A stretch of DNA of 64,000 bases, taken from Pseudogymnoascus verrucosus. Lineage: Eukaryota. Position 1 is the stretch's first letter. Each line of letters opens with the position of its first letter. Below the pieces are notes generated by a model. It did no database searches. It was not told where the DNA came from and worked only from the letters and a program-made list of their open reading frames with translations. The stretch is taken from NCBI GenBank assembly GCA_001662655.1, contig KV460213.1; one strand, 5' to 3'. This document shows positions 2,789 to 64,000 of this stretch, piece by piece. Both the position numbers and the translations under genes were made by a program.

Positions 2789-3880
2789 ATGGCGCCCATA
2801 AAAAAATCCGCCGGCCCCCGCTCCGAGCGCAAAGCCGCAAAGCGCAAAGCCCAAGACGCCATCCCCGATGTGCCAGAGGACTACAACAACGAGGGCGCCG
2901 AGGAAGTAGCAGCGCCCAAGAAGCGTAAGCGTGATGATGACGAGGAAGGCGGTGAGGACACCGAGGAGAGTGGTATCAAGAAGGTGAGGAAGGAGAAGAA
3001 GGAGAAGAAGGAGAAGGAGGAGGGGAAGAAGGAGAAGAAAGAGAAGAAGCCCAAGAAGGATGCCGAGGGAGGGGATGAGGATACGATGATGGAAGACGCC
3101 GCACCGAAGGAACCAAAGGAGCCAAAGGAAGATGTCCCAAAGAAGAGCAAAAAAGAGCGTAAAGCCGAGCGCAAAGCCCAACAAGCCGCCGAAGCAATCG
3201 CCAACGCGAAAGCCAACCGCGCTGCCGAAGAAGCAGCCGCAGCCTCCAAACCCACCGTCGCCTCTGACGGAACCGAGGCCAGCAAGCCCGCCGCAGCTGC
3301 AGCAGCTGGAGGAAAAACTCCCAAAGCCGAGAAAGCGCCTAAGCTCGATAAGGACGGGAATCCGATTAAGAAGAAGAATAACCGTAATCGCGAGAAGAAA
3401 CGGCTTGCGGCTGCGACGGCTATAGCGGCTGGTGAGAAGGCGCCAGCTAGGTTTATTGTGTTTGTTGGCAACCTCCCCTTCACCGCCACGGTGGAATCCA
3501 TAACTGCGCATTTCGCTGCCGTGCATCCCATCTCCGTGCGCAACCTCACCCAAAAAGACGACCCCACCAAGTCAAAGGGCTGCGCATTCGTCGAATTCGA
3601 GGGGTACGATCACATGAAGACGTGCCTAAAGACTTATCACCACAGCGAGTTTGACGATGGGAAGGGAGGAGGGGGAAGGAAGATTAATGTTGAGCTCACC
3701 GCGGGGGGTGGGGGTAATACGAAGGTCAGGAAGGGGAAGATTGCAGAGAAGAATGAGAAGTTGATGGAGCAGAGGACGAGGAGGATTGGGGAGGAGGAGA
3801 AGCAGAAGTTGGTTAAGAGGGGGGTGCCGGAGGAGGATCAGAGTGGGATTCATCCGAGTCGGAGGGCGAGGGTTGCGTAA
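2789..3880 (+). CDS. NOP6: Nucleolar RRM protein, Nop6-like
   Basis: K/E-rich N-terminus, RRM (RFIVFVGNLPF...KGCAFVEF), RKINVELTAGGGG and C-terminal GIHPSR. Probable start MAPIKK at 2789. Confidence 0.8.
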   Translation: MAPIKKSAGPRSERKAAKRKAQDAIPDVPEDYNNEGAEEVAAPKKRKRDDDEEGGEDTEESGIKKVRKEKKEKKEKEEGKKEKKEKKPKKDAEGGDEDTMMEDAAPKEPKEPKEDVPKKSKKERKAERKAQQAAEAIANAKANRAAEEAAAASKPTVASDGTEASKPAAAAAAGGKTPKAEKAPKLDKDGNPIKKKNNRNREKKRLAAATAIAAGEKAPARFIVFVGNLPFTATVESITAHFAAVHPISVRNLTQKDDPTKSKGCAFVEFEGYDHMKTCLKTYHHSEFDDGKGGGGRKINVELTAGGGGNTKVRKGKIAEKNEKLMEQRTRRIGEEEKQKLVKRGVPEEDQSGIHPSRRARVA

Positions 3881-4671
3881 ATCGGGGAAGGGGGTGTATG
3901 AATTGCGTCGTAGTAGTTTTGAGTTTGATTGTGGGAATGGTAATTTCACAGCGTTAACAAGCGGAGACTCCGTATTTGCAGAATTATTCATCGTGGTGTC
4001 AAAATGTGAAAAACCGTGCATGTCAGATCTTAATAACTCCTCTTTGCATTCATTCATCAGTAAAATCCCCAGCTATCTACGCAAACTAGGGTGATATCGG
4101 CCTAGTAATCATGTCCCATGCAATTATCACTTCCCCCCGCGTCGTCCCAACGTCCACTCTAGCGATTCGCAAAAGCACATCCATCCCCATTCTTTCCCGA
4201 TGAAAAAAACTGACCGCATATGTCGCCCAGTGAGAAAATCTACCACAGACTGCGACACAGCCCCTGCTGAACTCGCGACTGCAACTGCATGCGATGCGAC
4301 GATGACATGCAACGAGTCCTCATGAAAACGCGTTAAACAACTTCGCATCAAACTGGATATCCGCGCCCCTTCTCCCCCACAACACCCCTTTTCTCTTTGT
4401 TCGCAGTATCGACAAAAGAGATAAATTCCAGGCAAGACGAATTAGCAAAAAATAAAACCCCGGTATCTGCACCGATTTTTTTGCCGCATGAAAAGGCACA
4501 GTATGCTGGAGAGGAAATATAAGAGAAGAGGCTCAGGCTCGACAAATCTGTTCCATGTGGAATCCTGGGGAGATCCAGGGGGAATCTTGATGAGCCGGCG
4601 ACGAGTAGAGTGAGAAGAGGTGAGTAGACAAGTGTAGATGTTTTCTTTTTAAGGTTCTGGTATTAAGCCTT

Positions 4672-61778: not shown

Positions 61779-64000
61779 ATGGGACAACCTTCCACGCAGG
61801 CATCAAATGCCCTGATCTATATCACCTATGGCTCCTTCCTGTGCGACTCTCCCATTAAATCTTTACTACCAGTCTCTCCTGAAGACGAGAAGGGTATTTC
61901 AGAACTAACTTGCCGTGCCTTCAGGATTTTTGGCTGTGCCATCGCATGGCGGCTCCGGCATCAGACGAAAGACGAGTTCCTCTCCAGCAACAGAACGCAG
62001 ACTGGTTAGATAACCTCCACACGACCCTTCCGTGTCTGGCGTCAATCCTGTCCCCCAACAGCTGAAGCGCCTCCCCCAATTGACCACCCCCCCCCCCAAT
62101 ATTAGAAAAACAGCTGCTAATATTGATTCATAGCCGGACCGTTGGCGCTTAACTTTGTCGCTTCTGGTAAGTACTTTGCGGCGCCTTTGTTTTCGATTCG
62201 GTGAACGGCGGCAGCAACTCTCGTATATATATATATACGGATTCCCAGCACGAACAAGCAACACGAATATCGCCCAAGAGAGTGAAAACTCTCCGACAGA
62301 TCCCAACTGCAAACCATGAGTTATTAAATCATAAGGTTCGTATTTGCAGAAAATACCATGTACGCCTCGAACCTTCTCCTTGGCACTCTAGAGCAGGCAT
62401 TTTGCAATTTGGCTGTGTTGGCTTTGGAGGCCGAGGAGGTGGCAGAGAGCGGGCATTGTGTGGCTTCACTACGGGCGCTGAACCTGGCAAATACTGGGAT
62501 ACACCTCTTCTCTATGTTCACGTAGGGAGAGATATCTCAGTGTTTTGCTCAGGTGAAGCTGAGATTGTACCGTGATTACTCGATCAAGTTAATGCTTGCG
62601 TGGGAAAGTGCTGCCGCCTCGAAACCCCCTTCCCCCCATTGTTGCAGACTGCTAACATTAGATTTTTTTTTTCAATTAAACAGCCCTGGGTTCCGGTATT
62701 CTGTTCTCATACCCGCAACTGGCTGCTCTTACTGGCGTGCAAGGCGTGATCGTCTATGCCGTTAGTTCAGCGGCTCCTCTTATGATATTTGCTATCCTTG
62801 GCCCGATTATTAGAAATAAATGCCCCGAAGGCTTTATTCTCACGGAATGGACAAGACAACGATATGGTGTTGCTACAGCTATGTTTCTCAGCTTTCTCAC
62901 GCTGGTCACAATGTTTCTGTACATGGTAGCAGAACTCTCTGCAATGCAGCAAATCGTCGGTGCTTTGACTGGAATGGATGGCCTGCCAGCAATCATCGTG
63001 CAAGCCGTCGTAACGACGATATATACCTGTAGGTCATCCTTGCCTGTTTCTGTTCTTTTGCTGATCGTTGTAGCTCTCGGTGGCTTCAAAATCTCATTTA
63101 TAACCGACAATATCCAAGCAGTCATGGTCTTCTTTTTGGTTGCAGTTGCTACTATCACCATCGGGGTTAAGACGAATGTGGATCGCAGCCTAGTTGATTC
63201 TTCCGGCTTACTCAATCCTACTCTTCTGGGCTGGCAACTTCTGTATATTCTTCCAGTCGCCGTCCTCACAAATGACTTCTTTCTTTCCAACTTTTGGATC
63301 CGCACTTTCGCCTCTCGAACTGATAAAGACCTCTTCATAGGGGTCTCAAGCGCCTCAGTTATAGTGCTTGTCATCCTGACGCTTGTTGGTGTAACGGGTC
63401 TGCTCGCCGTCTGGACGGGGGCATTAGCACCTGGCGAAGACGGCTCCATCGCCTTCTTCCTTCTTCTGGAAACACTACCCAGCTGGGTTGTCGGAATTGT
63501 CCTGGTCATGACTGTTACGCTTTCTACAGCAGCGTTTGACTCCTTCCAGTCAGCCATGGTTTCTAGTGCTTCGAATGATCTGTTCAGGAACAAACTCAAC
63601 ATCTGGGTTATTCGAGCTGGGATAGTGGCGCTTATATTTCCTGTCGTTGTGATTGCTCTCAAAGCGCCGTCGATCCTGCAGATATACCTGATCTCCGACC
63701 TTGTTTCTGCCTCGACCATTCCTGTATTGGTTATTGGCCTTAGCGACCGCTTCTACTGGTGGCGCGGATTTGAGGTTGTAATCGGCGGTCTTGGTGGAAT
63801 TCTGACTGTATTCATCTTTGGAACAATCTACTTCGGGAATGCCCTTGATGGCGCAAAATTGATCTTGCTTGAAGGCGGTCTATACGCCAATGATTGGAGT
63901 GCATTCGGTGCTTTTGTCGCTGCTCCTTTTGGAGGACTCCTTTGGGGCTTTGGTGCATTGGTCGTTAGACTGAGCTTTCAGTGGCTTATTGCGAAGATAA
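61779..64000 (+). CDS. Sodium:solute symporter family transporter (NCU01977/Dur31-like, probable thiamine or precursor uptake); partial at window end
   Basis: Spliced MGQPSTQASNALIYITYGSFLIFGCAIAWRLRHQTKDEFLSSNRTQTAGPLALNFVASALGSGILFSYPQLA...KCPEGFILTEWTRQRYG...SFITDNIQ...FWIRTFAS. Many TM segments; the frame appears to continue to the window end. Confidence 0.88.
62467..62610 (+). ncRNA. TPP (thiamine pyrophosphate) riboswitch aptamer in intron 3 (62167-62683) of the transporter
   Basis: P1 CACT/AGTG; P2 TACGG/CCGTG; GGGCGCT...AGCTGAGA; TTGTACC; ACTCGATCAAGTTAATGCTTGCGTGGGA (P4/P5 CAAG-TTAATG-CTTG); long extended P3 hairpin. Confidence 0.93.

Follow-up and report, generated by a model that had tools for sequence, protein, structure and literature searches.

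A probable NCU01977/DUR31-type thiamin pyrophosphate riboswitch within the third intron of a transporter gene of Pseudogymnoascus verrucosus

The stretch considered here, below called the window, is 64,000 nucleotides (nt) of contig KV460213.1 from the Pseudogymnoascus verrucosus assembly GCA_001662655.1. At its 3' end lie five exons of a gene encoding an SSS-family transporter, and the third intron of this gene contains an aptamer of the thiamin pyrophosphate (TPP) class. Very probably, the aptamer is the sensing part of a TPP riboswitch of the kind described for Neurospora crassa NCU01977 and the yeast DUR31 genes ('Type II'), that is, a thiamin-responsive OFF switch acting on the splicing of intron 3. 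All features discussed are on the plus strand, and all coordinates are those of the window.

Results

The transporter gene

The gene model is based on spliced joints read from the contigs of a public run, denoted X1, which is only guessed to be RNA. The contigs contain four GT..AG joints in this gene, skipping 84, 129, 517 and 45 nt. Exon 1 (61779–61840) starts with the ATG at 61779, and the N-terminus of its product agrees with the consensus of the homologues. It is followed by intron 1 (61841–61924, 84 nt, joint 61840>61925), exon 2 (61925–62004), intron 2 (62005–62133, 129 nt, with the cut of the joint at +1), the 33-nt exon 3 (62134–62166) coding for ...PLALNFVAS, intron 3 (62167–62683, 517 nt), exon 4 (62684–63028), intron 4 (63029–63073, 45 nt, joint observed on a 1379-nt contig), and exon 5 (63074–64000), truncated by the window end. 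Joined from the ATG, the five exons encode 482 amino acids and are free of stops to the end of the window. The junction over intron 3, between ...NFVAS and ALGSG..., agrees with the consensus of 22 homologues.

The 5' splice site of intron 3, denoted S1, is GTAAGT (62167–62172), and the 3' AG is at 62682–62683. Judging by the sequence, the likely branch point is CTAAC at 62652–62656, 27 nt before the 3' splice site; at the equivalent position the orthologues have CTGAC or CTAAC. Between the alpha element and the aptamer, both described below, the intron also carries a (TA)7 microsatellite at 62224–62237. X1 differs from the window by one extra TA in this microsatellite and by twelve single-base differences across the gene, and hence comes from a related strain and not from an identical sequence.

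The translation of exon 5 has 102 relatives, nearly all of them fungal, with the best identity of 77%. The top relatives are from the Pezizomycotina, are 60–77% identical and are named 'urea transporter' or 'Na+/proline symporter', as the earlier note on this DNA had expected of automatic annotation; the Saccharomycotina matches are 45–55% identical. The N. crassa OR74A 'urea transporter' and its annotated splice variant fall into a cluster 72% identical to the query, and in the direct comparison with the N. crassa protein, P0103, exon 5 shows 70% identity (218 of 313 residues). The Pfam domain PF00474 is precomputed on most full-length homologues. In the window single exons were scanned: exon 4 alone yields a weak match to PF00474 (E 0.0011, 18.4 bits, under the cut-off of 22.8), and the exon 5 piece alone does not match it. 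Among the fungi carrying the NCU01977 riboswitch, Li and Breaker list Fusarium, Verticillium, Paracoccidioides, Microsporum, Stagonospora and Magnaporthe (PMC3597705), and their carrier species overlap the list of matches to the window protein. By its identity to the N. crassa protein, the host gene is assigned to the DUR31/NCU01977 type of SSS transporters.

The Candida member of this type, Dur31, was described as a thiamin transporter, the deletions in C. albicans and C. parapsilosis being resistant to pyrithiamine (PMC5997356). By analogy with these orthologues, the cargo of the window protein would be thiamin.

The TPP aptamer

The aptamer occupies positions 62460–62617, as follows from its fold, from the match to the covariance model R1 built from orthologues, and from a sub-threshold match to the Rfam family RF00059, the latter two considered below. 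The outer P1 helix is formed by GTGGC (62460–62464) and GCCGC (62613–62617), and P1 proper by CACT (62467–62470) and AGTG (62607–62610). P2 consists of ACGG (62471–62474) pairing with CCGT (62570–62573), and an additional pair between 62476 and 62567. It leads to the long P3 hairpin (62477–62559, 80 nt), followed by CUGAGA (62559–62564) and TACC (62568–62571). In the other arm, P4 pairs CTCG (62579–62582) with TGGG (62601–62604), the GATC motif is at 62582–62585, P5 pairs CAAG (62585–62588) with CTTG (62595–62598), and the loop L5 is UUAAUG (62589–62594), with TAAT at 62590–62593. The arm is completed by GCGTGGGA (62598–62605), which starts with GCG (62598–62600).

All elements that the earlier note had named (CTGAGA, TACC, GATC, TAAT and the closing P1) are thus found where it had placed them. 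The extent of the aptamer had been given as 62467–62610; the conserved unit is slightly wider, 62460–62618, extending through the outer P1. The intron had been estimated at about 517 nt, and it is of exactly this length, the other introns of the gene being 84, 129 and 45 nt.

The minimum free energy (MFE) fold of the segment 62460–62620 taken alone has the three-way TPP layout, with P1 closing the P2–P3 and P4–P5 arms. Its energy is -64.1 kcal/mol, compared to -44.8 ± 3.9 for shuffled sequences (z -4.95), and none of the 200 shuffles is as good. The four ligand-contact features listed in PMC5882874, GAGAU, UAAU, GCG and two G's in J4/5, are all present. The pyrimidine-sensor GAGAU in J3/2 is at 62561–62565, within CTGAGAT (62559–62565), which is unchanged in all 31 and all 48 aligned sequences. 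UAAU is at 62590–62593 in L5, the pyrophosphate-sensor GCG in J4/5 is at 62598–62600, and G62582 and G62600 are exactly 18 nt apart. This confirms a TPP aptamer inside a coding-region intron of an SSS-family gene. That it binds TPP is to be expected from the N. crassa and Candida experiments.

Conservation in orthologous loci

For the covariance test we used an alignment, A3, of 48 distinct orthologous aptamers, the window excluded, in which the canonical pairs of P1, P2, the P3 base, P4 and P5 were placed by hand. Standard pairs occupy 89.6% of the cells, versus 27.7–38.4% when the partners are slid by one to three columns, and none of 500 shuffles matches the observed pairing or covariation score. 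With the window added, the pairing is 90.7%. Compensatory changes are seen in pairs at the base of P3, such as UA:34 / CG:14 and CG:22 / GC:11 / UA:8. Since P2, P4 and P5 are near-invariant, their pairing counts say little either way.

The covariance model R1 was built from A3, that is, from the orthologues only. On both strands of the 64-kb window it has a single match, 62460–62617, scoring 134 bits (E 1.5e-35) over the full length of the model, and all 23 modelled pairs are standard. Over 81 sources, R1 yields 66 matches, one per source and always on the strand of the gene, and the window ranks 17th among these 66.

The position of the aptamer is conserved as well. Out of 80 orthologous loci (L001–L080), taken from metagenome contigs, 12 could not be assessed, the start of exon 4 being missing or preceded by fewer than 160 nt. 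The 3' core is at most 200 nt from exon 4 in 63 of the 68 assessable loci, and with L055, added by R1, the aptamer is in the same intron in 64 of 68. In L055 (2483–2607), a more distant orthologue with 60% identity, the aptamer is about 390 nt upstream of exon 4, compared to the usual 70–90 nt, and has the lowest score, 77 bits. A strict regular expression for the core matched 36 of 59 loci, the misses being mostly the GCGUGAGGA core variant. In four loci, L007, L015, L024 and L043, an intron is present at the same place, and neither the regular expression nor R1 finds an aptamer in it. Riboswitch loss could be the reason, or these sequences could represent a processed transcript form. In L043 the intron measures about 143 nt and still has an alpha-like GCGGCGGCAG near the donor (the alpha element is described below).

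The length of P3 is 66–141 nt in the orthologues, and 31 of the 34 distinct P3 sequences form a single hairpin that retains the closing pair. Hence the extended P3 is the rule for this class. The earlier note had singled out the extension of P3 into a long hairpin; the long hairpin is there, and with 80 nt it is not special to this copy. Given these length differences, RNAalifold applied to a plain MAFFT alignment mis-pairs P1 and P2, while P4, P5 and a distal P3 helix are recovered. Counts of anchored P3 pairs are valid for the first eight or so positions, beyond which indels break the register.

One of the contigs also contains a feature outside the transporter gene. In L041, a 126-nt tRNA match (3768–3893, minus strand, 50.7 bits) is situated about 1.7 kb downstream of the match to the transporter gene; given its length, this tRNA gene is probably intron-bearing.

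Comparison with the Rfam model

At the gathering score of 54.3 bits, RF00059 has no match in the whole window. In the permissive mode, it matches the aptamer with 34.2 bits (E 6.5e-5 for a 651-nt search) over model positions 1–105, which is below the gathering score. The Rfam alignment puts P1/P2 within the 80-nt P3 insert and omits P3a. The meaning of this score was calibrated on loci from the set of 80 orthologous ones. None of 20 loci reaches the gathering score. Among a further 20, the 16 aptamer carriers score 31.4–49.1 bits, all under 54.3, and RF00059 gives no TPP match in the remaining four, aptamer-free loci. The score of the window is typical of its class. The sub-threshold scores reflect the long P3 arm, that is, a problem of modelling, and since the whole class scores below the cut-off, a missing match at the gathering score is not evidence of absence. 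The earlier note had proposed the lack of a significant RF00059 match as grounds for dismissing the aptamer; applied at the gathering score, with 34.2 bits against 54.3, this test would have wrongly discarded the finding.

The low RF00059 score and the aptamer-free introns of L007, L015, L024 and L043, where loss may have occurred, are what one would look for if the aptamer in the window were a decayed relic, neither binding TPP nor regulating anything. However, none of the listed ligand-contact motifs is damaged, the score of 134 bits lies in the middle of the range for the class, each of the 23 modelled pairs is standard, and alpha and alpha' (see below) are perfectly complementary. A relic is barely credible here, and we retain the reading of a TPP riboswitch.

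The distal part of P3

In the window, the distal P3 contains an internal loop flanked by GGAUA/CACC (62497–62506) and GGAGAGAU (62526–62536). The consensus of this pair of motifs in the orthologues (alignments A2 and A3) is GGAUCCAACY ... GGAGAGAUC, and it is predicted to form a GAUC/GAUC helix beside a small purine-rich internal loop. The motif is near-invariant in most Pezizomycotina orthologues, while the adjacent P3 helices vary freely: in an alignment of 31 sequences, no change is seen at positions 62500, 62505 and 62532, and conservation is at least 90% at 62501, 62503 and 62529–62531. The subgroup that has the GCGUGAGGA core does not possess this motif.

The distal loop might be a second functional site tuning the switch, for example, by docking a protein or a splicing factor, but we consider this unlikely. 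For NCU01977 it was described that shortening of P3 decreases expression by 50% and leaves regulation in place, and the authors concluded that this part contains nothing critical (PMC3597705); the deletion work thus judged the distal P3 dispensable.

The alpha and alpha' elements

Downstream of S1, the intron contains an element corresponding to alpha of NCU01977 (62191–62219). Its core, GGCGGCAGCA (62207–62216), is 40 nt past S1 and fits RGCGGYRRY, the published consensus of alpha (PMC3597705). The alpha' element (62607–62624) comprises the 3' shoulder of P1 and the following bases. Among the long-range partners of the P1 shoulder, the core ranks best: GGCGGCAGC(A) at 62207–62216 is a perfect complement to 62609–62618, ten base pairs out of ten. 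This 10-mer occurs at two sites in the window only, with 0.14 expected, and one of 100 shuffles gives two sites. The pairing can be extended by the helper stretch UUUCGA (62191–62196) with 62619–62624. In the MFE fold of the full intron, 62607–62618 are paired with 62207–62219 and P1 is not formed; this fold is the predicted ligand-free state.

The arrangement is conserved. Complete introns were located by a script through the exon 3 peptide, which is encoded directly upstream of the 5' splice site of each of the 38 distinct introns (37 orthologous ones and that of the window). Of these 38 introns, 36 have the hexamer GCGGYR no more than 120 nt from the 5' splice site, and 29 have the 9-nt alpha motif in a form one letter looser than RGCGGYRRY. 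The flanks of alpha and alpha' covary, AGAAGCGGCAGCA occurring with TGCTGCCGCTTCT and GGAGCGGTGGCA with TGTTGCCGCTCC; the window has G-C where most orthologues have A-U.

Between alpha' and the branch point there is a C/U-rich tract, CCCCCUUCCCCCC (62625–62639). It is present in nearly all orthologues, and is kept even in the subgroup that does not have the distal P3 motif.

Each of the 38 introns has an in-frame stop no further than 150 nt from its 5' splice site. In the window the first one is TGA at 62202–62204, to be read upon retention of intron 3 or use of a donor further downstream. A consensus scan yields GTACGC (62360–62365) as the best candidate for an alternative 5' splice site, and weaker candidates at 62336 and 62458; all three retain the stop at 62202. 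Use of the nearest candidates, 62171 and 62201, would shift the frame and lead to a stop soon after, in exon 4.

A different role for the aptamer is suggested by the switches of two N. crassa biosynthesis genes, NMT1 and THI4 ('Type I'). These switches, said to go back to work by Cheah and colleagues in 2007, reportedly lie in leader introns, where P4–P5 masks a proximal donor. The aptamer class, alternative splicing and the OFF direction would be common to them and the window. Under such a scheme, P4–P5 would mask a nearby donor without TPP, and TPP would free this donor, diverting splicing. The GT at 62458 does adjoin the aptamer, its duplex with P4–P5 being -14.2 kcal/mol, and pairing of P4–P5 with the proximal site S4 is mentioned as a possible minor route in NCU01977 (PMC3597705). 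However, this energy is within the background: 23-nt windows of the intron have a mean of -10.0 with standard deviation 3.0, and the best value, -16.7, is observed at an unrelated place. Unlike NMT1 and THI4, P4–P5 pairing with the donor is here no better than background, and the strong conserved complementarity is that of alpha with the P1 shoulder, not with P4–P5. Control by masking of a donor is very improbable, and the pairing of alpha with alpha' is preferred as the basis of the mechanism.

Proposed mechanism

The model is that of NCU01977 (PMC3597705). There, as long as TPP is missing, a GC-rich alpha near the first donor is base-paired to alpha' (the 3' shoulder of P1), and this promotes excision of the intron in full. 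TPP binding ties alpha' up in P1; splicing then proceeds from other donors, premature stops are encountered, and the gene is off; no single alternative splice site was found to be critical. In Candida, thiamin represses the productive spliced isoform of DUR31 (PMC5997356). These two cases bear out the precedent of thiamin-controlled splicing that the earlier note had cited. They also support its reading of the gene as a thiamine-regulated transporter of thiamine or a precursor, with transport by the window protein itself being presumed from Candida.

In the window, at low TPP, alpha' (62607–62624) would pair with alpha (62191–62219) just past the 5' splice site. The pairing would loop out about 390 nt and bring S1 (62167) near the 3' splice site (62683), so that the entire 517-nt intron would be excised and the transporter produced. 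With TPP bound, P1 would form and sequester alpha', and splicing from S1 to the acceptor would become inefficient; the intron would be kept or weaker internal donors used, and translation would end at TGA 62202. Which way the switch works is carried over from the N. crassa and Candida experiments. The opposite, ON-switch reading was rejected: it stems from an early report on NCU01977 that Li and Breaker ascribed to misannotation (PMC3597705).

X1 contains, along with the spliced joint, unspliced contigs crossing both the donor (62137–62289) and the acceptor (62588–62712) of intron 3. Their depth is 3.5–5.8, compared to 2.9 for the spliced joint, whereas inside intron 1 (bin 61848–61921) the depth is 0; hence intron 3 seems to be often left in. 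The spliced and unspliced forms of intron 3 coexist in X1, which is consistent with the intron being frequently not removed. From three raw-read RNA runs under the same species label (X21, X22 and X24), no reads mapped to the window, and these runs carry no weight either way.

Several observations weigh against the proposed switch. When the 5' region is shuffled 500 times, 15 of the shuffles match the duplex energy of alpha with alpha', and a 10-bp run arises in 15 of 200 if G-U pairs are permitted, although the latter test is too permissive for a single locus. The case for alpha–alpha' pairing is not overwhelming per locus and rests on position and conservation. The RF00059 score, 34.2 bits, is under the gathering score. 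P0103 is only presumed to be the product of NCU01977. X1 is no more than guessed to be RNA, some of its unspliced contigs could derive from pre-mRNA or DNA, and the depth of contigs gives a poor measure. There is no alternative-donor joint among the X1 contigs, which proves little, since contigs drop rare variants. A consensus-like internal donor, defined by a narrow pattern, is present in only 14 of the 38 introns. This scarcity accords with the literature, in which none of the alternative sites is considered critical by itself and plain retention is described for part of the DUR31 introns.

These last facts bear on a simpler scheme, in which TPP controls plain retention of an intron with one donor and one acceptor, the internal donors being unused and alpha–alpha' pairing at most helping. 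Plain retention was reported for DUR31 of Ogataea polymorpha, and obvious alternative donors are missing from some of the DUR31 orthologues (Donovan 2018, PMC5997356). The content of X1, a full splice joint with unspliced contigs over both splice sites, and the small number of introns with internal donors are as this scheme would have it. On the other hand, the missing joints weigh little for the reason given above, and the preservation of alpha in 36 of 38 introns argues that it matters. We regard plain retention with alpha at most helping as distinctly unlikely; it differs from the NCU01977-type switch solely in the fate of the unproductive RNA.

Discussion

The closest known system is N. 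crassa NCU01977, described by Li and Breaker (2013) and classified as 'Type II' by Mukherjee (2018, PMC5882874). The host genes are orthologous, with 70% identity of the proteins. In both, the aptamer has a long P3 and is situated in a long coding-region intron near the N-terminus; the RGCGGYRRY alpha follows the first donor and is complementary to the 3' shoulder of P1; and a premature stop is read unless the intron is removed from S1. The riboswitch intron is the third in the window and the second in N. crassa, and its 517 nt are less than the 650–900 nt given in the Type II description (PMC5882874). The distance between alpha and alpha' is about 390 nt, compared to about 500 nt in N. crassa, and alpha is 40 nt past S1, compared to about 70 nt (316 minus 246). 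The differences in intron number, intron length and alpha spacing are minor. In addition, the alternative donors of the window are candidates only.

Similarity to the DUR31 genes of C. parapsilosis and O. polymorpha (PMC5997356) extends to the protein clade, which is clade V, Dur31/NCU01977, distinct from Dur3, and to the location of the TPP aptamer, which the yeast genes likewise have in an intron close to the 5' end. However, the budding-yeast proteins, 45–55% identical, are far more distant from the window protein. With RF00059 the aptamer shares the core P1–P5, CUGAGA, ACC, the UAAU loop and GCG.

The aptamer, its association with this host gene, the mechanism and the distribution have already been published, the last for 138 fungi in a survey of 2018. 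The window copy is an ordinary orthologue, and for biology it is one further example of a published riboswitch, adding little. The consequences are mainly for annotation. As the gathering score of RF00059 misses the long-P3 class, pipelines relying on it leave such switches unmarked. By analogy with the Candida orthologues, the gene in the window should be described as encoding a probable thiamin transporter, rather than a urea or proline carrier, and its intron 3 should bear a riboswitch feature.

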